From contig OZ244587.1 of the NCBI GenBank assembly GCA_965218095.1, positions 960,001 through 1,024,000 of the forward strand: a stretch of 64,000 nucleotides of DNA. The letters are read 5' to 3'. The notes under the pieces are model-generated. The model saw only the letters and a program-made list of their open reading frames with translations. It was not told the DNA's origin and ran no database searches. A program made the position numbers and the translations under genes. Source of the DNA: Candidatus Poribacteria bacterium. GTDB lineage: Bacteria; Poribacteria; WGA-4E; PCPOR2b. Below, one piece after another: positions 1 to 59,227 of this stretch (the first letter of the stretch is position 1; each line of letters starts with the position of its first letter).

Positions 1-1618
1 GCACCACAGGAGCCTCCACAGAGTTGTCATAGTTTTGAGGAAGCATTGGATAGAGCTGGGGCCATTCGTCTGCCACTCCATCAATCACCACCTCTTCGCT
101 CATACGAACCGCTCGACCCCGATCTCGGCGATCTGGATTGTTTAGTCCTGTTGATTGGTCGAAGGCAAGGTTTACTCCTCCTGCTGGATTGGCCTCCAGG
201 ATGGAGACCTCAGAAACCGCTGCATTCGGACCCGCCAAGCGGTTAAAGTTCAGGGCAATCTCGGCATCGGCATAAGCCTCACTCGGAATTGCATACATGT
301 AGGAATCCGCTTTGCCTTTAGGAAGTTCCATCGCATCATGTAGAAGAAACCCATCAACGTCAAGATTCTGTATCCGCCCGCCCCCTTTTTCCTGGAGGTA
401 GGTTACGTGCACCCAGTATAGCCGCGATGGTTCTAAGCCGGTGTATCTGATTTCGACCGTATCGTAATGATAGGCGAAGCTTTTCTGGCTGGGTGTATTA
501 CCGGCGTCCACGTTGTCCGCATCATCACCTTCTGGCAGCAGGTAGCGATTTCCATCACTTATACCTCTATCAAACGCAAAGCCCCGGTCCAGGTGAGGTG
601 CAAAGGCATTGCCAGCCTCCCCCAGATTTTCATAATGCATCTGTACTGCGTTGTAATCGCTTAACCTGTCATCAACAGGAGGCGGCAATCGGTAGTTATC
701 AGTGAAAATCTCAAATTCTCGAATTTCAGGATAATCACCATACCAATCCCCTCGTTCAATCCGTAGGCGAACATAACGTCCCAATATCGGTAGATGGAAC
801 CGGCGGAGATGCGTCACCGTCTCATCGGCGAGTATGTGGGACACAAAAATCTCTGTGTAATCATGTCCGTTGTCGCTGACGGAAAAGTGATAACGTTTGA
901 GGTTGTTTCCGGGGCCATCCGTCGTGAGACGCACACCGTAAATTTTCTGATTCCCGCCGAGATCGCCTGTCACGTCAATTGCCCTTGTTGGGGTTCTGTA
1001 AGAGATCCCCGTCTCCTTCCTGACATCCGCTTGCTTTACCGCTTTCTCCATCCGTTGAGCGGCAATCCATTTCGAGCCTTCAAAGAGGAGGAGATCTGTC
1101 AGTTTCGGCAATTCGGCAGGATTGTAGTTCGCATCAATCGCTTGGATTGGGCTATGGGATTCATAGCGCACACCGACGCGAAACTCATCTTTCTTCAATT
1201 GTGGCTTGTTGCTAAACCAGTCGTTGATAACAACCTGCACCCAACGCGCCTCTACCGGGAAGAAAGCCTGCCACGTATATGTGTACTCACGAGAGCTCCC
1301 ATTATAAGAAAAGGCGCGGTCAAATTGTTGTTTGGCACGGTCGGTCTGAACGAGTAAATCATACTGTTTGGGACCACTTTCATCGGCATTTTCAAATAGA
1401 ATTTCCGCGTTGTCAATCCTATAAACAAATCCCAAATCATATGTTGTAAAAATCGGATCCGTCCGCAGAATATCCGTGTAGTGTAGGGGTTCATTATCGA
1501 GTGTGCGTACAGGTTTGATAAACACCTGATCGACGACCGAGACGACTTCTCCACGCGGATAAAAAAGAAATCCGAGTAACAGGGCGCTCCCGCCGAGTAT
1601 CAGATATTTGAGTGTCAT
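1..1618 (-). CDS. Secreted protein, partial (runs off window start); discoidin/F5-8 type C-like domains followed by the start of a CBM9-like sugar-binding domain
   Basis: Manual translation from ATG at 1618 (GAGGAG RBS upstream): MTLKYLILGGSALLLGFLFY signal/anchor, DLGGNQKIYGVRL and RYVRLRI...IREFEIF discoidin-like motifs, VIDGVADEW near the edge. Not in the ORF track, consistent with no stop before the window edge. Confidence 0.7.
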   Translation of the reverse strand, partial: MTLKYLILGGSALLLGFLFYPRGEVVSVVDQVFIKPVRTLDNEPLHYTDILRTDPIFTTYDLGFVYRIDNAEILFENADESGPKQYDLLVQTDRAKQQFDRAFSYNGSSREYTYTWQAFFPVEARWVQVVINDWFSNKPQLKKDEFRVGVRYESHSPIQAIDANYNPAELPKLTDLLLFEGSKWIAAQRMEKAVKQADVRKETGISYRTPTRAIDVTGDLGGNQKIYGVRLTTDGPGNNLKRYHFSVSDNGHDYTEIFVSHILADETVTHLRRFHLPILGRYVRLRIERGDWYGDYPEIREFEIFTDNYRLPPPVDDRLSDYNAVQMHYENLGEAGNAFAPHLDRGFAFDRGISDGNRYLLPEGDDADNVDAGNTPSQKSFAYHYDTVEIRYTGLEPSRLYWVHVTYLQEKGGGRIQNLDVDGFLLHDAMELPKGKADSYMYAIPSEAYADAEIALNFNRLAGPNAAVSEVSILEANPAGGVNLAFDQSTGLNNPDRRDRGRAVRMSEEVVIDGVADEWPQLYPMLPQNYDNSVEAPVV

Positions 1619-27116: not shown

Positions 27117-27425
27117 AATGAGCCAATAGGTGCATAGCCCGGAGTGTTTCAAACATTTTTCGCCCCGATAACTCTGTCTCGTTTGAGCTATCGGGGGATT
27201 TATCAACATCGCTGAAAAAGTTGTATCAGTTAGCACTTCCAAAGCGGATTGAGTGATAATCAGCGAATGAAATGAATTCTGTACAAACTCAACTAGAATC
27301 TGCATGACAGGAACCACTCGGTGTGGGCTTGTGCAACAGCCTGAACCTGAAGCAGATAATCACTTGCTACTGTTGCGAATTTGTGTATAAACTGGAATTG
27401 TATCAACAGAAATAGGAGGTTTGAA

Positions 27426-28256
27426 ATGACGTATAGTAACGTTCCTATCGGAACATCTAACCCCGGTTGCATTGTCATCTTAGTCGATCAATCTTGGTCA
27501 ATGAGCGAAGATTGGGGAACCGGAACGAAGGCAGAGCGAGCCTCCCTTGCTGTCAATCGTATCCTTGAGGAACTCGTTCTCGCTGGCCGGGCCGGAGATA
27601 TGATAAAGGATCGGTGTCACGTCTCTGTTATCGGCTATGGTGAACGGGTTGAATGCGTCGTTGACGGCATGATATCAGAGGTCGCATCATCACTCATTGA
27701 AGTCAAGAAAGTTAAAAAGTCCATTCCTGACGGAGCGGGTGGGATTGTTGAGGTTGAAGTAGAAATGCCGGTCTGGGTGCAACCAACGGCGAGCAATAGC
27801 ACCCCAATGCATGAGGCATTTGAACACGCCGCCGAAATTGTTCAACGCTGGTGCGACGATAAACCCGATGGTTTTCCACCAATTGTTATCAACATCACAG
27901 ATGGTGCCGCCACTCAGCCTGATTTGACAGCAGATGCCGCAAGAAAAGTCATGAATCTCCACACGACAGATGGCAACGTTTTGGTTTTCAACATTCATAT
28001 CGCTAATAGTATACACCAGGAGACTTTCCCACACAGCACAGCCCAATTGGTAGGTGATAGCTTGGCAGAATTTCTCTTCAGTCTCTCTAGCGTTCTGCCA
28101 GAGCCCTTGCGCGAAATGGCAAAAGAAGTGGGACTTCCGGCAGATCCCGATGCCCGATGTTTTAGTTATAATGCGGATGAAGTCACGATGATTAGGATCT
28201 TGGAGTTTGGTTCTTTGAGCGTAACACAGATACGAGCTCTTCCATCTCCTGTTTGA
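27426..28256 (+). CDS. vWA-domain protein (TerY-like)
   Basis: MIDAS motif LVDQSWSM ... STPM ... INITDG; AGGAGG RBS. Confidence 0.88.
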   Translation: MTYSNVPIGTSNPGCIVILVDQSWSMSEDWGTGTKAERASLAVNRILEELVLAGRAGDMIKDRCHVSVIGYGERVECVVDGMISEVASSLIEVKKVKKSIPDGAGGIVEVEVEMPVWVQPTASNSTPMHEAFEHAAEIVQRWCDDKPDGFPPIVINITDGAATQPDLTADAARKVMNLHTTDGNVLVFNIHIANSIHQETFPHSTAQLVGDSLAEFLFSLSSVLPEPLREMAKEVGLPADPDARCFSYNADEVTMIRILEFGSLSVTQIRALPSPV

Positions 28257-28260
28257 AGAT

Positions 28261-29169
28261 ATGATTAAATTAACAGCGAGCTCCTTCATTACCCATAAAG
28301 AAGCGGAAAGCCTAGATGATTGTCAAGACGCTTGGGACCTGAATGATGAGAAGGGACGCTATACTATTGCAGATGGTGCGACCCGCTCCTTTTTTCCAAA
28401 GGAGTGGGCAACCCTGCTCGTAGAGCACTTCTGTGAAAGCGCCGAATTGTCTTTCACGGAAATGAATTGGCGAGACTGGATAGGCCCCATCCGACAAAAA
28501 TGGTATGAACAGGTAGAAAAGAGGGTGAAAGAGCGAAACCTGTTCTATCTCACAAATTCGTTCAACGCCCAAGAATCCGCCGTTTCTACTTTTATTGGCA
28601 TTGAATTCAATAAAGATAACGGTGCGTGGGAGGCTATGATTGTGGGTGATAGTTGCCTGTTTCATAAAAGCGATTCTGGGTTTGAAAGTTACTTGATAGA
28701 GAATTCAGCAGACTTTACGAATCGTCCCGAAGCTTTCGCTAGTTTTGAGAAGGACAATCACTCTGAGCCGACATTTATCCTTGGTAAAGCCAAACCCGGT
28801 GATACCTTTATCTTGGCAACCGATGCTTTGGCGAAATGGATTCTCGAACATAAGGAAGTTGGGGAATTAGATGCGGCACTTGATACCCTCAAAGCGGTAG
28901 AATCGGATGAACACTTCCACCAATTTGTCCATGAGGCGCGCCATAACGAAGCCATCCGCCTCGTTAATGACGACGTAACGCTTATGCTAATTTCGGTTGA
29001 AGAGGCTCAAAAGCCGGAAGAGACCGAACCAGAAGCACCCTCGGAAGCACAAACCCAACAGCAACAAGATGTCTTATTGCGTACTCTCTTTTGGGGAATC
29101 CTCGCAGGGGTTTTTGCGTTCTTCGTTGGGTTTATCATTCTTCTCTTGGTATTGCTCAATCAAAAGTAG
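28261..29169 (+). CDS. PP2C-like protein phosphatase with C-terminal TM helix
   Basis: CQDA, IADGAT, VGDSCL, LATDAL, NDDVT; hydrophobic C-terminus. Confidence 0.88.
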   Translation: MIKLTASSFITHKEAESLDDCQDAWDLNDEKGRYTIADGATRSFFPKEWATLLVEHFCESAELSFTEMNWRDWIGPIRQKWYEQVEKRVKERNLFYLTNSFNAQESAVSTFIGIEFNKDNGAWEAMIVGDSCLFHKSDSGFESYLIENSADFTNRPEAFASFEKDNHSEPTFILGKAKPGDTFILATDALAKWILEHKEVGELDAALDTLKAVESDEHFHQFVHEARHNEAIRLVNDDVTLMLISVEEAQKPEETEPEAPSEAQTQQQQDVLLRTLFWGILAGVFAFFVGFIILLLVLLNQK

Positions 29170-29194
29170 CGAAATCGTTAAATTGGAGCAGTTC

Positions 29195-31618
29195 ATGCCT
29201 TGGCCAAGCCGGATCGATTATACACAGGCAGTACGCGATTTTCCTCATATCAGCATATTGGACCCAAAACTTAAAGGTGGAAACCCCCGGAGGGGTTCTA
29301 ACAACTACTTGATAGCTTACTCCGGCGGCTTTTCGATTGTGTTTCCGATTGAAGTGTTATCGAACACCTATGCGCTGCGGTGTTGGATTGCAGACATTGG
29401 GGATGCCGAAACTCGGTATGAAAAAATATCAAAGTATCTGGAACAACGCCGTTTGCCCTACTTTGTCGATTTTGCCTATGTTCCCAAAGGCATTCTGGTG
29501 AATGGTATTAAGTATTCCACCACGCGCATGGAATGGGCAGAGGGGGAAACACTTTGTGATTTTATCGAGCAAAATTTGCAGGATGCTAGGTGCTTGAAAA
29601 CCGCTGCGGCGGAATTTCAAAAGATGGTTGAAACCCTCCATACTCACCAAATTTCACACGGGGACCTTCAAGATGGAAATATCCTGTTCAAGCGAAACGG
29701 AACTGATGTCAAAATCAAGTTGATAGACTACGACAGTTTGTTCGTTCCGGCACTTCGTGGGCAACCTGATAACATTGTTGGGATTCCGGAGTATCAACAC
29801 CCTCAAAGAATAGCAGGCGGTGGGGGTGCAAACGAAAAAGTGGACTACTTTTCGGAGTTGGTGATCTATCTCTCCTTATTGAGCCTCGCGGAAAAACCCG
29901 ATCTCTGGAATCAGTTTGGGGATCGAACCGAAAAAGGGTTGTTGTTCATAGCCGAGGATTTCAAAAATCCAGACCAATCCGACGTTCTCCGAGAGCTTGA
30001 AAACCTGTCGCCGGATGTGAAGCAACTGGCTTCAAAATTAAAAGAATTTTGTAAGCTATCCATTGACCAATTGGAACCACTAGAAGCGGTGTTGCCAAAA
30101 ATCTCGCCGGCCCAGGTTGCTTACGACCTAGGTGTCACTTACCTTCACGCTCAACAATATAAAGCAGCGATTGACGAGTTCAAAAAGGCGATAGTCCTTG
30201 ACCCGAATTATAAAGAGGCACACCATGGGCTGGGCCTTGCACACTTAAAGATGGGTAGTCTTGGGGAAGCGAAAAGGGCAGCGGAAGCAGCTTTAAGAAT
30301 TGATCCGTACTATCAGCCTGCTCATCAACTTTTGGATGCTATAAAATCATCTAGTACCTCTTCTGTTGTGACTCCACCGCCTCCGCCTACAGGAATATCA
30401 AGACCGGTTTCCACAAATCCAACTTCTCAACCCTCTCCGTCTACGGGAGCACCAAGACCGACTCCCACAAATCCAGCTTCTCAGTCGTCTCCGTCCACGG
30501 GAACATCAAGACCGACTCCCACAAATCCAGCTTCTCAGCCATCTCCGTCCGCGGGAGCACCAAGACCGACTCCCACAAATCCAACTTCTCAGCCGGCAAA
30601 GCCGCAACCTACTTCCTCAAACCGTTGGCAGTACATTACTGGTGCTTTAGCTTTTGTCTTAGTGATTTGGATTGTGGCATTCGTAATCCAGATGAGCGAG
30701 GAAGATGAAGTGCTCCGCCGAAAACCGGGAGTTACTAAACCAATTCACCAAACTGCAAACGGAAACAATATCGCTGAAGAACGGAAACCAAAAGTTGCGA
30801 GACGAGAACCAAAAGTTGCAAAACAAGAACACGTTCCAAAGCCGGGGGCGATAGAGCCAACCCCCCAAACGGGGAACGAAAAGGGCACCGAAAATCCAAT
30901 TCCTATCACTCCCAGACCGGCAAGCGAAACAGGTTTTCCCGGCCAAAACCGAGAGTTGCAAAACCAACTCACCGAAGGGAGAACTGAACAGGACGAGGAA
31001 ATTCAGACTCAAATTGCTAGAGCCCACGACGAAACAGTAGCACTTCGTAGTCAAAACCAAAGATTGCGAGATGAAAACGAAAAGCTTCGTAGCGAAACCC
31101 GAATGTTGCATAACGATAACCAAAGGTTGCATAACGATAACACCACGTTACAGAAGCGACTAGACGAACTGACACAGAGTCCTGTTGAGTCAGTCCCTAG
31201 CCCCAGTTACGATCAACTTCGTGCAGAACCTCTCCAAGAGATTTCTCATAACGTCCGCCCTCGAGTAAGACTAGCTGCGATGTCTAAAAATAATCAAGGA
31301 TGCATTAACTTTAACAGGAACCAGCATCGCACAGCGATTAAACTTTTCCAAGATGCCATAAAGAACGATCCAAAATCTGCAATAGTTCACTACAACCTTG
31401 GTTGCACTTACTTAGCAATAACAGAGTATGCTGATGCCATAATTTGTCTTGACCAAGCAGTAGCTCTTGACCCAAAATTTAAAGAAGCGCACTACAACCT
31501 TGCTCTTGCTTTTCTTAGGCGGGGCCACCGTCAAGCGGCGATAAATGTGGCTCGAAAAGCCTTAAACATAGATAACAATTATCTGCCTGCTCGCCAGCTT
31601 TTAGACGCTATTGAATAG
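29195..31618 (+). CDS. Protein kinase-like domain + TPRs + Pro/Ser/Thr repeats + TM + coiled coil + TPRs
   Basis: SGGFSIVF, HGDLQDGNIL, LIDYDS, EYQHPQR; TPR motifs (AIVLDPNYKEAHHGLGLA; AVALDPKFKEAHYNLALA); TM YITGALAFVLVIWIVAFVI. Confidence 0.88.
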   Translation: MPWPSRIDYTQAVRDFPHISILDPKLKGGNPRRGSNNYLIAYSGGFSIVFPIEVLSNTYALRCWIADIGDAETRYEKISKYLEQRRLPYFVDFAYVPKGILVNGIKYSTTRMEWAEGETLCDFIEQNLQDARCLKTAAAEFQKMVETLHTHQISHGDLQDGNILFKRNGTDVKIKLIDYDSLFVPALRGQPDNIVGIPEYQHPQRIAGGGGANEKVDYFSELVIYLSLLSLAEKPDLWNQFGDRTEKGLLFIAEDFKNPDQSDVLRELENLSPDVKQLASKLKEFCKLSIDQLEPLEAVLPKISPAQVAYDLGVTYLHAQQYKAAIDEFKKAIVLDPNYKEAHHGLGLAHLKMGSLGEAKRAAEAALRIDPYYQPAHQLLDAIKSSSTSSVVTPPPPPTGISRPVSTNPTSQPSPSTGAPRPTPTNPASQSSPSTGTSRPTPTNPASQPSPSAGAPRPTPTNPTSQPAKPQPTSSNRWQYITGALAFVLVIWIVAFVIQMSEEDEVLRRKPGVTKPIHQTANGNNIAEERKPKVARREPKVAKQEHVPKPGAIEPTPQTGNEKGTENPIPITPRPASETGFPGQNRELQNQLTEGRTEQDEEIQTQIARAHDETVALRSQNQRLRDENEKLRSETRMLHNDNQRLHNDNTTLQKRLDELTQSPVESVPSPSYDQLRAEPLQEISHNVRPRVRLAAMSKNNQGCINFNRNQHRTAIKLFQDAIKNDPKSAIVHYNLGCTYLAITEYADAIICLDQAVALDPKFKEAHYNLALAFLRRGHRQAAINVARKALNIDNNYLPARQLLDAIE
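30381..30594 (+). repeat. Intragenic 54-nt tandem repeat, about 4 copies (18-aa PTNPxSQPSPSTGxxRPT)
   Basis: ccacaaatcca recurs at 30411, 30465, 30519 and 30573. Confidence 0.9.
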
Positions 31619-50197: not shown

Positions 50198-52636
50198 TCA
50201 ATTTTCAATATGGTGTGTTATCCAACACCGACGCCCATCGGTCAACAACCGAATCGCGCCGAGTTGATCTGTCCGCGGCACACGACACCCTCGCTCTCGG
50301 TAACGGTTAACAACCATCTCGGAGGGAAAACCGTACCGATTCCGCTCACCGAGAGAGAAAATCGCGTATTGCGGACGCACGGCATCAAGGAGTGCTACGC
50401 TGCTAGAGGTCTTGCCCCCGTGATGTGGCACCTTGATAATCTCTGCACGGAGGTCGTGTCCCGATTCAACCAACTTCAATTCAGCTTCCTGCTCAATGTC
50501 CCCCGTAAACAGGACGCGCACATCACCATAGGTCATCTTCAGGACAAGGGAATCGTTGTTTACATCTTTATCCATTAGGTTCGTCGCGGCTTCATTGAAT
50601 GGATGCAGCAATTCCAGCCGTGCTGTCGAGGTTAGATCGATTTCCCCTGCATAACCGAGTTCATGGGGAATACCCTGCTTATCGACGATTTTATGTACGA
50701 TGCGGTGTGTCGGTGGAGACAGATCCAGGTGTGGCACACCAAGCACACGTGCAACGCCAAACTGGTGCAAAATGTGCGCGAAGCCTCCGCCATGGTCATT
50801 GTCTGGATGAGTCATGAGAAGCAGATCCAACTTGAAGACACCCTCATTGCATAGGAATGGGTCGAGGATGCGCTCGCCGCTGTCGTAACCGACCAACTTG
50901 CTACTGCCATCTTCTGCCTTGTGGATTCTTGTTGAATTGAGCCCACCATCAATAAGCATTGCCTTCCCATCGGGAAATCGGATATACGCCGCGTCCCCCT
51001 GTCTGACATCGAGAAAGGTGACTTCTAGCAAATTGCCTTCTTCTTGCCAGGCCATATCCCAGATCCAGATTGCTGTGACCGCCAACCCAATCAGTACAGC
51101 CTCCTTTCGATGTTCCCACACCCAATGCCAGTGGGCAACCGCGAGACAGCCGGCGATGTAAACGACGATGAAACCGAAAGTTGGCGGTGCTGTTTTGATG
51201 ACGGCCCACGGCTGACCGAAAAACTTGATAATCTCCAGAAAGATAAAAAGGATGAGGTGGTTGGCGTAAACAAACGGAGTCGCAAGGGGTTGCCAGATTA
51301 TGCCGAGAAGAACCGAGATTAAAGTGATGCTCACGATAAGTGCGGCGAGTCCGACGACAAAAGGGCTCGCGGCTAATCCAATCGGATACACGCGATAGAA
51401 ATGTCGTGCGATGATTGGCACCGTGCCAATTTGTGCCATCAGGGTTACGCCAAATGCGCTGATAGATCTTCTCCCGCCTATCTGATTAATGAGATTTGGT
51501 AGAATGGTATCGGCCAAACTGTTCCACTTCGGCAGAAAATAAACGATAGATGTCACAGCAGCGAAGGAGAGTTGGAATCCAACATCCCATAGTTGCGCGG
51601 GATTGACCAACAACAGAACGAGCGCAGCGAATGCTAGCAGGTTAAATAGGTCCGCATCTCGATCAATAATCATCGCAATCAGAAACAGAATCGCCATGAG
51701 CGAAGCGCGTAACACCGAAGCGCGAAACCCGACAAGGCAGGCATAAAGAATGACAATGGTAATTGTCAGAAGACAGACCGTTTTTCTTGATAAACCCAGA
51801 AGGGAAAAACCGAGAAAACAGACGGCAGCAATCAAGCCAACGTGCAATCCTGACACGGCAAGAATGTGTAGGCTGCCGCTATTCCGGAATGTATCAAGGA
51901 TCTGTTGGGGAAGTACGCTTCGTTGGCCAAGCAGCATCCCTTTGAGAACCAGAACGTGATTGGAATTGTCATGGTATGTCTTATCAATAACCGACTCCAC
52001 TCGCCGACGTAGCCTTTCCGTCCAATGCAATAGAAAAAAGCCAGATCGATGCGTCGGCGCAATCTTTTGATTTCGATGCGGATGAAGTATTCCGAAGACC
52101 TGACGACGGGCGAGATAGGCGCGGTAATCGAAGCCCCCTGGATTCTGCTGTCCTTTCGGTTGGCGCAACTCGCCTTCCACCTCAAGGTGATCCCCGTAGC
52201 GCAAATGCGCCGGCTCACGGAATCGGATCAGGAACTTCGCCTCCACGACCAAATCCGGCGTTGTCACGGATTGGATTGTACCGATTGCGTAACCCTGCTC
52301 CCACAATTCGCCGCGATCAGGTTGGTACGCCATTCGTCCTGAGAAACGCACCCGGTGATCATAGAGTTCTGGGGGGATTGGCGAAGTCAGGACGGCGCCT
52401 AAACGCAACATGCCGCAGGCAAAAATTGCAATCAGTAACAGCGCGCGTTGAATCTTTGGCATACGAAAACGCTGCTTTCGCAGATACAGTAGTCCAAGGC
52501 TGCCGATGAGGCAGATCAGCATAATCAGCCAGATCCAAAGGAGGGGAATAGACAAATATCCGGCGATAGAGATTCCGAGCGCGTAGGGAATGAGTGTGTT
52601 GAGGGCGGGTCGGGCTATAGGGTTGTTCGTCATCAC
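50198..52636 (-). CDS. comEC: DNA internalization competence protein ComEC/Rec2
   Basis: NPGGFDY, HILAVSGLHVG, RASLMA, GFQLSFAAV, MBL motif THPDNDHGGG, KVPHHG, NRYGFP. Confidence 0.93.
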   Translation of the reverse strand: MMTNNPIARPALNTLIPYALGISIAGYLSIPLLWIWLIMLICLIGSLGLLYLRKQRFRMPKIQRALLLIAIFACGMLRLGAVLTSPIPPELYDHRVRFSGRMAYQPDRGELWEQGYAIGTIQSVTTPDLVVEAKFLIRFREPAHLRYGDHLEVEGELRQPKGQQNPGGFDYRAYLARRQVFGILHPHRNQKIAPTHRSGFFLLHWTERLRRRVESVIDKTYHDNSNHVLVLKGMLLGQRSVLPQQILDTFRNSGSLHILAVSGLHVGLIAAVCFLGFSLLGLSRKTVCLLTITIVILYACLVGFRASVLRASLMAILFLIAMIIDRDADLFNLLAFAALVLLLVNPAQLWDVGFQLSFAAVTSIVYFLPKWNSLADTILPNLINQIGGRRSISAFGVTLMAQIGTVPIIARHFYRVYPIGLAASPFVVGLAALIVSITLISVLLGIIWQPLATPFVYANHLILFIFLEIIKFFGQPWAVIKTAPPTFGFIVVYIAGCLAVAHWHWVWEHRKEAVLIGLAVTAIWIWDMAWQEEGNLLEVTFLDVRQGDAAYIRFPDGKAMLIDGGLNSTRIHKAEDGSSKLVGYDSGERILDPFLCNEGVFKLDLLLMTHPDNDHGGGFAHILHQFGVARVLGVPHLDLSPPTHRIVHKIVDKQGIPHELGYAGEIDLTSTARLELLHPFNEAATNLMDKDVNNDSLVLKMTYGDVRVLFTGDIEQEAELKLVESGHDLRAEIIKVPHHGGKTSSSVALLDAVRPQYAIFSLGERNRYGFPSEMVVNRYRERGCRVPRTDQLGAIRLLTDGRRCWITHHIEN

Positions 52637-54208: not shown

Positions 54209-57200
54209 ATGCCCCACGTCGTCAAGTATGGCAAACGTGAACGATTGTCCTTTGCAAAAATTCCGGAGATTATGGATCTCCCGGATCTGATTGAGGTTCA
54301 AAAATCTTCCTACGAAGAATTCCTTCAACGAAATATCCCTCCAGAAAAACGTAAAGATAAAGGTCTCCAAGCCGTTTTCAAGGAAATCTTTCCAATCCCC
54401 GACTTCAGCGAAACGTCCGAACTCAGGTTCGTTAGTTATTCCCTCGGCACCCCTAAGTACGACATCAATGAATGCCAATCCCGCGGATTCAGTTACGCCA
54501 TGCCAATCAAGATCTGTGTTCAATTGGTTCTCAGGGAACAAGACAACGACACCGGTGAAAATCAGCTTATTGACATCAAAGAGTCCGAAGTATACATGGG
54601 TGAAATCCCCCTGATGACCGAAAATGGCACCTTCATTATCAACGGCTCTGAGCGGGTGATTGTCAGCCAGTTGCAGCGATCTCCCGGCGCGACGTTTGGG
54701 GAGGAGACCCACACCAGCGGACAAAAACTCCATATAGCGCGAATTATCCCGTATCGCGGGGAATGGATCGAATTTGAACATGACATCAAAGACCAGATCT
54801 ATGTCCGGCTAGCTCGACGGAAAAAGATGTTCGTGACGATTCTGCTTCGAGCGCTCGGCTGGGAAACTGATGAAACCATCCTCAAGATGTACGCTAAGAC
54901 AGAGTGGGTCAGCCTCAACGACTCACTTATTGACCGGGTGATAGCTACTCCTGTCAAACATCTTGTCACTGAAGATGTCTCGCTTGAAGCGAATACGGCA
55001 TTAACAGCAGAACAGATTGATGAGTTACTTAAGGCAGGCATCAGCGAAGTTGAAGTTTTCCACAAGACGAAGACGGAGCGGGTCAGTCTGGATGACTCCC
55101 CGATTGGTCGGGTGACGTCTGTTCCTGTCAAACACTCTGTCACTGGAGATGTCTCGCTTAAAGCGAATACGGAATTGACAGCAAAACAGATTGATGATTT
55201 GCGTAAGCGAGATCCGCTGTTTCAAGTTGATTTGAATTCCGTTGCAAGGCCGGAACCGACACAGTTTGATCCTGATCCAGATTTCGATTATAAGTCACCG
55301 GAGTGGCAATCGCTAAAACGGCAGTGTCGGGAAAAGGCTGGTTGGAAATGCGAGCAATGTGGTATCGATCTTAGCGATGACCCCAAGTATCTTGATACCC
55401 ACCATGTAAAAGGCAGCCAGCATAACAATCTCGAAGACCTTATGGCTCTCTGTATTGGTTGCCATGCGGAACAACAACCGGATGAAAGACATAAACACCT
55501 CAAAAAAGAGGACCGTTATAAAGAATTTATGGATTCATACGGTGACAACTGGAAGTCTGCTATCCTCCAATGGAAGTCTGCTGTCCTCCAAAGCGATTTG
55601 ACGGATGGTGCATCAGTGTCGGATGAATGGTGCCGACAGTTTAAGGACAATGGTGCTTCTCTGTCCCCTTCCGCAATCGTACAGGTAAAGACAGAAAGTC
55701 GACGCTGGCGTGTATCGAACAAAAACAGCAGAGGTAACTTTACCATTGAGAAAGCAGGGGATACCTTCAATGTCTATCAAGATCTTGAGATTGAAGTTTT
55801 TCACAAGACGGAGCGGGTCAGTCTGGATGACTCCCTGATTGGTCGGGTGACGTCTGCTTCTGTCGAATACAAACGCCTTGTCACTGCAGATGTTTTACTT
55901 GAAGTGAATACGGAATTGACAGCAGAACAGATTGCGGATTTGCTTGAGGCAGGCGTCGGTGAGGTTGAGGTTCTAGACGCAGATGATGCAGAGGAGATTC
56001 GTTTCCTGCGGAATACGCTTGAGCGTGACCTTCAATTAGATTACACGCTGCCGCGGATTTTTCAAGTACCGTTACCGTCAGACCTCGAAGGCGATTTGAC
56101 GGATGATGCACCGGTGTCAGATGCATGGCTCCGAAAGTTTAAGGACAATGGTACTTCTCTGTCCCCTTCCGCAACCGTGCAGGTAAAAGCAGAGGGGCGC
56201 TATCGTATATCCAACAAAAACAGTAGAGATAACTTCACCATTGAGAAAGCAGGGGATACCCTCAACGTCTATCGTGGGAGTATCCAGGATCTGGCGGTTG
56301 TGGATATTTTCCGTAAGTTGCAACCGGGCGATCCTCCCACAATTGAAAGCGCATACAACCGTTTTGAAAAGATGTTCTTCGACCCGGTGCGCTATGACCT
56401 TGCAGAGGTAGGTCGGTACAAGCTCAATAGGAAGCTCGGTGATCTCTCCCTGTATCGGAATGGGAACGAAATGGTGGGTGAGCATGTGCGTATTCTGCGT
56501 AAGGAGGACATCGCCGCGGTTCTCAAATACCTGATCCAGGTCCAGAATGGAAATGGGGAGATGGACGACATTGATCACCTCGGCAACCGTCGCGTGCGGG
56601 CAGTCGGGGAACTGTTACAAAATCAGGTGCGAATGGGGATGCAGCGCGTTACGCGTGCCACCCGAGAGCGGTTGACGGTTCAAGAACTGGAGAGTATGAC
56701 GCCTCCTGATTTAATCAATCCGAAACCGCTGACCGCTGCGATTAAAGATTTCTTTGGCTCCAGCCAACTTTCCCAATTTATGCAGCAGGCCAACCCACTG
56801 GATGAATTAACCCACAAACGCCGCTTGAGCGCGTTGGGTCCAGGCGGACTGCATCGAGAACGCGCAACCTTTGAGGTCCGAGACGTTCACCGTACCCACT
56901 ATGGGCGGGTGTGTCCAATCGAGACGCCCGAAGGTCCTTCGGTTGGGTTGATTGTTTCCTTGAGCACTTACGCACGAGTAAACGCCTACGGCTTTATGGA
57001 AACACCTTATCGAAAGGTGGTGAATGGGCAAGCGACTGACCAGATTGACTACCTGACAGCGGATAAGGAGGATGCATTCACCATTGCGCAGGCGCACGCT
57101 GTCCTTGATAAGGATGGAAATATGGCAGATGATCTGATGGTCACGCGGCACAAGGACGACTTCCCCCGGAAACCCGCACAGGAGGTCGATTACATTGACG

Positions 57201-59227
57201 TTTCGCCGAAGCAGATTGTTGGCGTCTCTGCCGCACTTATTCCGTTCCTCGAACATGATGATGCAAACCGCGCCTTGATGGGGAGTAACATGCAAAGGCA
57301 AGCGGTACCGCTGCTCCGCCCGCAAGCTCCGCGTATTGGGACCGGTATGGAGTACAAGGCAGCCCATGACTCTGGCGCAGTTGTGTTGGCAAAGCGGGAT
57401 GGTGTCGTGGAGAGCGTTTCTGCCTCCGAAATCATTATCCGCACGGATGACACCTTTCGGATTGATGGTGGAGAACAGTCATTCAGCGAGATGGGATACG
57501 ATGTCTACCGGTTGGTGAATTTCAAGCGATCGAACAGTGGCACCGGTCTTCATCAACGCCCGTGTGTGGCTGCCAAGGAAGTGGTGAAAGCAGGCCAGGT
57601 GATTGCCGATGGCACCTCGACGGAAGATGGGGAACTTGCCCTCGGTAGCAACGTTCTGGTTGCGTTCATGTCTTGGGAAGGATATAATTATGAGGATGCG
57701 CTCCTCATAAGCGAATCACTGGTAACTGATGATACCTACACCTCCATCCACATCGAAGAGTTTGAGGTGGAAGCGCGGGATACGAAGATGGGGAGGGAGG
57801 AGATCACCCGGGACATCCCGAACCTCTCAGAGGAAGCCTTGAGTCAACTGGATGAAGAGGGAATTATTCATGTCGGTTCGATTGTTCGTCCCGGAAGTAT
57901 TCTGGTCGGCAAGGTTACCCCGAAAGGGGAAAGCGACCTGGGTCCAGAGGAGAAACTTCTTCGGGCTATTTTTGGTGAGAAAGTCGGTGAGGTGCGTGAC
58001 GCTTCCAAGTACGTCAGACCCGGCACAGAAGGTGTAGTGGTTGATGTGAAGGTCTTCTCCCGGAGAGAGCGAGAACGCGATCGCCAGACCGAGTTGCGGG
58101 AGCTTGCTAAAGAGAAGGAAGTCGAAAAAGAGTGGCAGGCGAAGTGCATGTTAATCAACCAGCGCAAGAACACAGAGATTCGTAACACTCTGCTCGGCAA
58201 AACGCTCGCTAGTAGCGTCTCTGATGGCGCAGAACTTCACGCCCAGCAGGGAGATGTTGTCACAGAGGAGTTGCTGGATGCAGGGGCGCCCCTCGAACAC
58301 TTCCATGTCACGGACGCTAATGCAATGGACCGCATCCAGCGCATTCGACAATTGGCGCAAGGGCGCATTGATGCCCTGACCGCCGAGCAGGAAGATCAGC
58401 TTGAGAAGATTCGCAAGGGGGATGAGTTGAAGCCCGGCGTTCTCAAACTGGTGAAGGTTTATGTGGCGAACCATCGCAAGATTGCTGTCGGCGACAAGAT
58501 GTCTGGGAGACATGGCAACAAGGGGGTGGTCGCGAAGATACTCCCGCAAGAAGACATGCCGTACCTGGAAGATGGAACCCCAGTTCAGATTGTAATGAAC
58601 CCGTTGGGCGTCCCCGGACGAATGAATGCCGGACAGATTCTGGAGGCGCATTTGGGCCGGGCAGCGGAGAAACTCGGCTTGTACATCACTACACCGGTCT
58701 TTGATGGCGCGAATGAGGAGGAGATTCGTGAGCTCTTGCACAAAGCCGGACTGCCCGAAAGCGGAAAAGCGAAGTTGTATGATGGACGTACGGGGGAACC
58801 TTTTGCACAGGAAGTCACCGTCGGACATGGGTATGTTCTCAAGCTGAATCATCTCGTTGATGATAAAATCCACGCTCGCAGCACAGGCCCTTATTCGTTG
58901 GTGACGCAGCAACCGCTCGGCGGCAAGGCGCAACAAGGCGGACAACGGTTCGGCGAGATGGAGGTGTGGGCATTGGAGGCGTATGGCGCCGCATACACCC
59001 TTCAGGAGTTGCTCACGATTAAATCCGACGATGTCGTCGGAAGGAGTAAGATCTACGAAGCAATTGTCAAAGGGGAGAATGCTCCTACGCCGGGCACTCC
59101 AGAATCGTTTAACGTCCTGGTAAAAGAATTACAAAGCCTCTGCCTCGATGTGAAATTAGAACAAGCATCTGGTGACGCAGAGACATTTGACATTGACGTC
59201 ACGAATTGGACGGCAGAAAAAGAATGA
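54209..59227 (+). CDS. rpoB: DNA-directed RNA polymerase beta subunit with large nested insertions, including an HNH domain
   Basis: [85 protein letters not shown]. Confidence 0.98.
54896..55975 (+). repeat. Three intragenic BBM2-like repeats in rpoB (A1 54896-55063; A2 55070-55207 plus 55788-55804; A3 55805-55975)
   Basis: Near-identical nucleotide and peptide units KTE.VSL.DS.I.RV...V...VT.DV.L..NT.LTA.QI..L..AG..EVEV. Confidence 0.85.
55241..55591 (+). other. In-frame HNH endonuclease-like domain inside RpoB
   Basis: [57 protein letters not shown]: two CxxC pairs with the HH...N...H pattern. Confidence 0.85.

Follow-up and report, generated by a model that had tools for sequence, protein, structure and literature searches.

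Nested insertion domains in the RNA polymerase beta subunit of a Candidatus Poribacteria bacterium

The stretch of DNA considered here (the window) comprises 64,000 nucleotides of contig OZ244587.1 (positions 960,001 to 1,024,000 of assembly GCA_965218095.1) from a Candidatus Poribacteria bacterium. Its gene of interest is rpoB, encoding the beta subunit of RNA polymerase (RNAP), in which three copies of a repeat (A) and two copies of a small domain (B) are combined with an HNH domain that lies inside one B, which itself lies inside one A. Named homologues and GTDB titles assign the gene to Poribacteria, which are mostly marine bacteria. It is followed by rpoC and has a MATE gene on its other side, with no ribosomal-protein genes directly upstream in the window; comEC (50198-52636, minus strand) lies 1.6 kb upstream, the MATE gene being in between. 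Individual proteins and genome loci are referred to below by P and L numbers, respectively.

Anatomy of the insert region

The insert region reads, in order, A1, A2 head, B1 head, HNH, B1 body, A2 tail, A3, spacer and B2, with the following coordinates, strands and identifying evidence.

54209..59227 (+): rpoB (RNA polymerase beta), 1672 amino acids in one open frame, with Pfam RNA_pol_Rpb2 domains
54896..55069 (+): A1, a BBM2 repeat of beta-i4 (SI1); the A profile matches both E. coli beta-i4 halves and PDB beta subunits (E 3.5e-6)
55070..55207 (+): A2 head, BBM2 as far as its helix; refolds with the tail in the predicted model (range 1..245)
55214..55234 (+): B1 head, beta strand 1 of B (E51-54 in the model); aligned to the head of B2
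~55235..55585 (+): ZorE-like Zn-HNH insert in the strand1-helix1 loop of B1; PADLOC, NCBIfam and Pfam profile matches
55586..55777 (+): B1 body; 74% amino acid and 86-88% nucleotide identity to B2
55778..55804 (+): QDL remnant of the B2 3' flank, then the A2 tail strand; junction comparison of the window, L064 and L070 (repeat D11)
55805..55975 (+): A3, the terminal BBM2 repeat; model residues 245-302 match 7egs_A
56048..56272 (+): B2, intact B at the clade-ancestral site; empty site in B-less relatives, E. coli mapping, AlphaFold2 confidence (predicted local distance difference test, pLDDT) of 93.8

The nested anatomy, which the original prediction had read from the letters alone, is borne out at the same coordinates and within a single open frame. 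The copies, described there as highly similar in nucleotide sequence, prove to be similar rather than near-identical: A1-A2, A1-A3 and A2-A3 share 81%, 78% and 86% of their nucleotides, compared with 53% on average, and at most 64%, in 200 shuffles, while B1 (head plus body) and B2 share 84%. The same A-A[B[HNH]]-A-B layout recurs with diverged sequence in P0002 (on a 5.3 Mb contig), P0003 (0.9 Mb contig), L064 and L070 (6.96 Mb), amounting to 3 of 121 mapped proteins (the window, P0002 and P0003) and 2 of 70 Poribacteria-like genomes (L064 and L070). An assembly artefact, which repeats within a metagenome-derived gene might suggest, is thus practically out of the question, since identity between the copies is no higher than 78-86%, the reading frame is unbroken, and four independent diverged records, including multi-megabase contigs, carry the same arrangement. 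The nesting is therefore real.

Structural modelling is consistent with this arrangement. The AlphaFold2 model of A2-A3, built from an 18-row alignment, has a pLDDT of 86 and a predicted template modelling score of 0.64. Within it, the split A2 aligns as one unit of ~58 residues (model 1..245, a modest Z of 5.8) and the split B1 as one unit of ~60 residues (model 49..238, a modest Z of 3.6-3.8), and the HNH part aligns to solved HNH nucleases (Z 5.8, likewise modest). A2 and B1 are each predicted, with these modest Z-scores, to refold as one unit around their inserts.

Repeat A, foreseen as BBM2-like, is the BBM2 domain of beta-i4/SI1, with position, sequence homology and fold in agreement. 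Its profile matches the E. coli beta-i4 halves 259-287 and 296-334 (single-target E 5.5e-7), as well as beta subunits in the PDB; the flanks of the array map to E. coli beta ~209-216 and ~345-355, placing it in beta2 (the lobe) at the beta-i4 position; and the model of A3 can be superposed on chain 7egs_A of the E. coli lobe/beta-i4 (Z 7.3, root-mean-square deviation 2.2, 56 aligned residues) and on MoeA (Z 8.8). The available part of PMC2939025, citing Iyer 2004 and Lane & Darst, already describes beta-i4 regions with one to six BBM2 copies in tandem, so variation in repeat number is by itself not new. A homologue search in which 8000 candidates were scored gave copy numbers of 1-5 among the homologues listed (120 of 212 matches), many of which contain BBM2 within BBM2, and the number also ranges from 1 to 5 among near-identical rpoB cores. 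An extra BBM2 also occurs at a non-beta-i4 site near the beta N-terminus (amino acids ~50-110) in P0018-P0030, L039 and L074.

Domain B and the nuclease domain within it

B is a 73-residue domain consisting of a strand, two helices and four strands. A profile built from 12 sequences and searched against 1.84 billion representative proteins matched 92 proteins, of which three are RpoB fragments and four (P0143, P0168, P0192 and P0213) lacked B on re-search, leaving 85 non-RpoB proteins that carry 191 copies in total, with one to seven copies each. A Pfam scan of all 92 revealed a wide variety of hosts, including pentapeptide-repeat proteins, SpoIIE phosphatases, YidC, signal peptidase, POTRA, ABC transporters and an ABC ATPase, RAMPs, TssG and caspase-like proteins. 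The boundaries of B in these hosts are sharp and in frame, often lying within a host domain, and in one non-RNAP protein (P0187, amino acids 46-174) a B is inserted in another B.

No match to B2 was found among the families of Pfam, NCBIfam, PADLOC or PHROGs, and the three weak Pfam overlaps that occur sporadically among the 92 matches (MOSC_N, Inhibitor_I48 and DUF5751) are mutually inconsistent. The best match of B among PDB sequences has an E of 1.2, and no Foldseek match in PDB or BFVD reached E<=0.001 (best VIA Z 4.7), a weak or missing match being no proof of a new fold. B was likewise absent from the ESM Atlas feature search, from phages (query P0210) and plasmids (query P0188), from the rest of the window, and from the flanks of the 76 loci and the 67 rpoC genes surveyed (some incomplete). 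Word-index searches of low sensitivity gave four matches among 30 candidates for HNH and five, all unnamed, among 27 for B. The sole lead to the organisms of the non-RpoB hosts is a structural row in the ESM Atlas, a Poribacteria CtaA cluster at TM 0.55. Taken together, the clean in-frame boundaries in 85 non-RpoB hosts and the lack of any library match support the proposal, already made in the original prediction, that B is an unnamed promiscuous in-frame insertion domain. Origin as a palindromic miniature inverted-repeat transposable element (MITE) was considered and rejected for the rpoB copy: the B2 DNA is not unusually structured (fold z -0.37), and no inverted repeat occurs at this copy, which is an old insertion.

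The domain inside B1 carries C381/C384, H398/H399, N406, C415/C418, H419 and H428. Its best family is ZorE (E 1.4e-21 in PADLOC; E 2.5e-12 in NCBIfam, with 46 bits, far under the whole-protein cut-off of 600), and it also has a weak PADLOC 'HEase' match (E 1.6e-4) and a match to Pfam HNH (E 0.005). The ZorE protein of Zorya II is a nickase, according to part of PMC11890865, and passages of a preprint (PMC13192584) list K231 and N238 among the residues needed for defence and report that the N-terminal domain is also required. The numbering adopted here was transferred through a ZorE-like plasmid protein of matching spacing, a protein other than the one tested in those passages of PMC13192584. 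H225, H226, N234 and H247 are present in all 11 RNAP-borne HNH copies, together with one distal His and the two distal Zn cysteines, and only 19 of 96 columns are invariant, the first CxxC pair included. K231 is kept in 3 of 11 copies and N238 in none, the window having Q404 and D410 at the equivalent positions. Since P0122, a non-RNAP relative, also has D at 238, this change may predate capture into RNAP. The ratio of nonsynonymous to synonymous divergence (dN/dS) is 0.36-0.75 for HNH versus 0.03-0.04 for the rpoB core, an imprecise comparison based on ~100 codons per pair.

Judged from its sequence, the domain is ZorE-like, neither a ZorE nor an intein. Embedded in rpoB between the MATE gene and rpoC, it has no zorA or zorB beside it at the locus. 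An intein was ruled out: Pfam finds no Hint or intein family, the model accounts for the insert as HNH plus helices, and the terminal Q-S belongs to B itself, leaving no splice-junction residues of its own. The 3' end of HNH carries a 21-nucleotide tandem duplication (55550-55591, overlapping the B1 junction; repeat D13), which was rejected as a target-site duplication, being one-sided only and common to L042, L064 and L070.

Distribution, ancestry and exchange of the inserts

Removal of L011, L017, L023, L034, L062 and L072 from 76 loci left 70 Poribacteria-like genomes, ten of which encode a verified nuclease fold (HNH, MTES_1575 or SNase) in RNAP, six in rpoB and four in rpoC (of 67). The strand1-helix1 loop of B is used repeatedly. 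B2 of the window had been regarded as showing the empty HNH site, and this proved correct: in L042 and P0006 the corresponding loop of canonical B2 houses HNH, and in P0016 and L070 the unrelated MTES_1575 domain. The RpoB of L070 (L070:9368-14686, plus strand) has two B domains, with HNH in B1 and MTES_1575 in B2. The HNH family also occurs in beta-i9 (P0007 and P0116), in external-1 (L033 and L065) and in beta' (L031), and MTES_1575 at a different position of beta (P0087) as well as in beta' (L009, L016 and L073). MTES_1575 is a domain of the kind present in Hhe/PDC-S37, which are anti-phage proteins; its E-D-ECDG-H set is kept in 6 of 6 copies, and some copies have deletions adjoining the His. 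Neither HNH nor MTES_1575 was found in the 92 B-profile matches. An SNase domain (Pfam E 9.5e-15) lies inside an extra N-terminal BBM2 of RpoB at L006:9008-9475 (+); its motif looks altered, and it presumably lacks the usual acidic motif.

Near-identical cores bear different cargo in two groups, one formed by P0003, P0005, P0007, L022 and P0087, and the other by L007, P0004 and P0016. As a control, 183 neighbouring proteins from 10 families, a small and mostly short set, contained a single internal indel of at least 30 residues. The original prediction had described an actively expanding surface; active change is evident in the 1-5 BBM2 copies on near-identical cores, but layouts have also been lost and exchanged between species, so that expansion is only part of the picture.

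Several further inserts were observed. A C-terminal extension at L055:13955-14491 (+) and a beta-i9 insert shared by L018:9429-9881 (+) and P0116 look like PD-(D/E)XK nucleases by eye and were excluded from the nuclease counts; neither has a match in Pfam, NCBIfam or PADLOC, or in the single phage or plasmid search made with each, and the L055 extension has only a weak PHROG match of unknown function. In a second Poribacteria group (rpoC of L002, L009, L016, L031, L073 and relatives), beta' reaches ~1870-2190+ residues, and some long beta subunits (L018, L026, L033 and L075) belong to the same group. The swelling of both subunits consists of arrays of a short Cys-Pro-containing repeat without a Pfam match, among which HNH or MTES_1575 domains are nested. 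Coiled-coil inserts of 400-450 residues occupy about the same place in beta' of L013 (10782-12134, +) and L049 (15664-16878, +), which belong to different branches.

B2 is found in 17 of the 70 genomes; these 17 make up a single clade with full support, and the B2 site, mapping to E. coli beta ~355-359, is empty outside that clade. At the 3' junction of B1, the window has QDL and L064 a longer, TIQDL-like remnant, both corresponding to the rpoB flank downstream of B2. Because B1 carries this flank, B1 is, on the junction sequences, an intragenic copy of a B2 that is ancestral and fixed in one clade. Two independent arrivals of B are hence not upheld.

The distribution of the nested alleles points to exchange between species. 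With the insert region left out of the tree, the five nested alleles fall on four separate branches and need four changes, and a single clade is rejected by the approximately unbiased (AU) test (p=1.0e-4; 27 of 90 rows, LG+G4, quick search); a shuffle test for clustering of the nested label was not significant (111/500). Synonymous third-position differences between the window and L064 amount to 38/184 (21%) in the insert versus 475/996 (48%) in the core (Fisher p=2.8e-12), and those between the window and L070 to 47/190 (25%) versus 434/991 (44%) (p=7e-7). Control pairs with the plain AB allele have no such dip in the insert (L007-L022, 0.29 vs 0.28/0.28 in the core; L007-L063, 0.47 vs 0.50/0.49). 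The reverse pattern appears in close relatives, with 0.30 in the insert versus 0.06/0.09 in the core for L070-L007, and an HNH dS of 0.48 versus 0.20 in the core for L064-L042. With synonymous divergence of the insert at about half that of the core, the cassette appears to move between species, as shown by the tree and by synonymous divergence together. Moreover, the spacer and B2 of the window are closer than its core to most B-clade genomes, with the exception of L063, so the window lineage has probably received the whole lobe segment. Codons 1-100 of rpoB (54209-54500) are also less diverged at synonymous positions than the remaining core in comparisons with L035, L007, L064 and L070, which may reflect a second exchange tract or a constraint on the start region. 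Overall, a history of single B entry, intragenic duplication, unspliced loop capture and interspecies allele exchange appears highly probable.

Interpretation and relation to known systems

What maintains this variability is a more speculative matter. The account that we favour, tentatively and with slightly less than even confidence in the whole, is that this RNAP surface is hypervariable, recombines and takes up domains derived from defence systems, with conflict as the probable driver. Phylogeny and empty sites show that the promiscuous B arrived a single time, immediately downstream of beta-i4, in a common ancestor of one clade. The junction sequences show that unequal recombination among direct repeats alters BBM2 number and copied B2 with its QDL flank into A2. 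Occupied and empty alleles show that the strand1-helix1 loop of B is a tolerant landing site for the unspliced uptake of anti-phage-related nuclease domains, and the tree and synonymous divergence show that alleles are passed between species, with the conserved rpoB flanks serving for homologous recombination; the sole hint of uptake by transformation is comEC 1.6 kb upstream. Finally, turnover may be driven by conflict with RNAP-binding proteins of phages or plasmids, with bulky, variable, nucleic-acid-binding domains remodelling or shielding the surface that foreign proteins bind. The HNH would then most likely serve as a folded module that binds DNA or acts sterically, its nicking being attenuated, rather than as a site-specific homing enzyme. 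The proposed driver would find a parallel in E. coli, where portions of two papers place Alc-resistance positions (T4 Alc) at P345 and R368/P372 of beta (PMC2939025), with the equivalent of the B2 site lying between them, and describe phage TraR homologues that bind or act via beta-SI1 (PMC9239242).

Several points weigh against this account. The principal one is the invariance of the active-site histidines in all 11 HNH copies: shielding needs no nuclease folds, yet the catalytic sets of HNH and MTES_1575 are kept, which would fit activity better. The link to conflict is an analogy with E. coli, and dN/dS stays below 1, which gives no sign of diversifying selection. The plain AB allele is common, so cargo is dispensable. 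The non-significant shuffle test (111/500) fits scatter and is silent on its cause.

A more far-reaching proposal, rather unlikely, is that Poribacteria have repeatedly grafted anti-phage nucleases onto RNAP, with B (as a mobile adaptor) and BBM2 serving as sockets, armed alleles being traded between species, and at least some domains, this HNH included, being functional RNAP-tethered nucleases. It is unlikely, too, that the inserts reflect neutral tolerance, in which dispensable loops take any in-frame domain, nucleases are simply the commonest mobile cargo, and their shuffling by repeats and interspecies recombination brings no benefit. The relaxed dN/dS of HNH, the non-nuclease cargo (B, the L013/L049 beta' coiled coils and the repeat arrays), the arrival of B in many unrelated proteins, and the description of beta-i4 and beta-i9 as insertion-tolerant 'dispensable regions' in an extract of PMC2939025 are all compatible with this explanation. 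However, it predicts neither one cassette in four lineages nor invariant active-site residues, and the neighbouring genes are nearly indel-free (1/183, though from a small, mostly short set).

An active, RNAP-tethered effector, in which nucleases carried or triggered by RNAP nick phage or host DNA on engagement or on binding of a phage factor, is about as unlikely. In its favour, three verified nuclease folds occupy several independent sites, two of them having defence proteins as best library matches; the catalytic and metal-binding His residues are invariant in 11 of 11 HNH copies, in an alignment with just 19 invariant columns out of 96; the ZorE relative is a nickase (PMC11890865, in part); and beta-i4 faces downstream DNA (a passage of PMC2939025). 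Conversely, the K231 and N238 equivalents are altered, the required N-terminal domain of ZorE is absent, the SNase copy looks dead, some MTES_1575 copies have deletions beside the His, and the inserts have no common position, being scattered over the lobe, beta-i9, external-1 and beta'.

Splicing-free homing, in which HNH would cut insert-free rpoB at the B site, be copied by gene conversion and survive unspliced in the tolerant loop, is quite improbable. An in-frame endonuclease in an essential gene, its scattered distribution, its insertion at the equivalent site of both B1 and B2, which differ in context, and the weak 'HEase' match would agree with it. Nevertheless, the rpoB genes of the window, L064, P0002 and P0003 still contain an unoccupied B2 target (84% identical); the ~110-residue HNH is accompanied by no DNA-recognition domain; the same HNH family sits at unrelated beta and beta' sites; and the best family is ZorE (E 1e-21) rather than a homing endonuclease, with an unrelated nuclease in the same loop.

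Elsewhere in the window, consecutive vWA, PP2C and kinase-TPR genes (27381-31618, plus strand; Pfam) form a row that we take to resemble a TerY-P-type triad.

The usual view takes lineage-specific RNAP inserts for stable markers at the level of phyla, and rpoB for a clock with vertical inheritance. In this case, part of rpoB acts as a hypervariable locus with strain-level cargo differences, unspliced nucleases and interspecies exchange, which is unexpected in a conserved enzyme and cautions that the untrimmed beta-lobe region is unsuited to Poribacteria phylogeny. With B, the locus also brings to light a new promiscuous insertion domain whose loop tolerates inserts, and natural allele pairs (AB, A-B[HNH] and A-B[MTES]) on nearly identical enzymes offer a test of what RNAP inserts do. 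If RNAP-tethered nucleases were functional, they would make a strategy of defence, or a selfish one, part of the core transcription enzyme itself. A literature search, with the catalogues of Iyer 2004 and Lane & Darst 2010 outside its scope, found no report on Poribacteria RNAP inserts or on unspliced nuclease domains in bacterial RNAP. In summary, the locus represents real domain accretion in RNAP involving a new promiscuous domain, with an unexpected pattern of nuclease capture and exchange.

Four known systems provide the closest comparisons. ZorE of Zorya II is the best family of the HNH and shares the H225/H226/N234/H247 equivalents and Zn cysteines, whereas the RNAP version comprises the HNH domain only, fused inside RpoB, without the ZorE N-terminal domain, with K231 replaced by Q and N238 by D, and with a loop one residue shorter. 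Inteins and homing endonucleases in RNAP genes, as described in part of PMC1635734, are likewise sporadic in-frame endonucleases in an essential polymerase gene; the present HNH differs in having no Hint domain, in occupying a variable surface loop rather than a conserved motif, and in coexisting with an empty target in the same gene. Rickettsia palindromic elements, coding MITEs covered in a section of PMC10969869, resemble B as short in-frame units with sharp ends in many unrelated proteins, but the DNA of B is not palindromic and B is a confidently folded 73-residue domain. Finally, BBM2 inserts of beta-i4 (SI1, beta-DR1) share the position and the homologous repeat; here, in contrast, content differs between near-identical strains, foreign domains are nested in a repeat, nuclease folds and interspecies exchange are involved, and B lies outside beta-i4, at a site that is empty in other Poribacteria.

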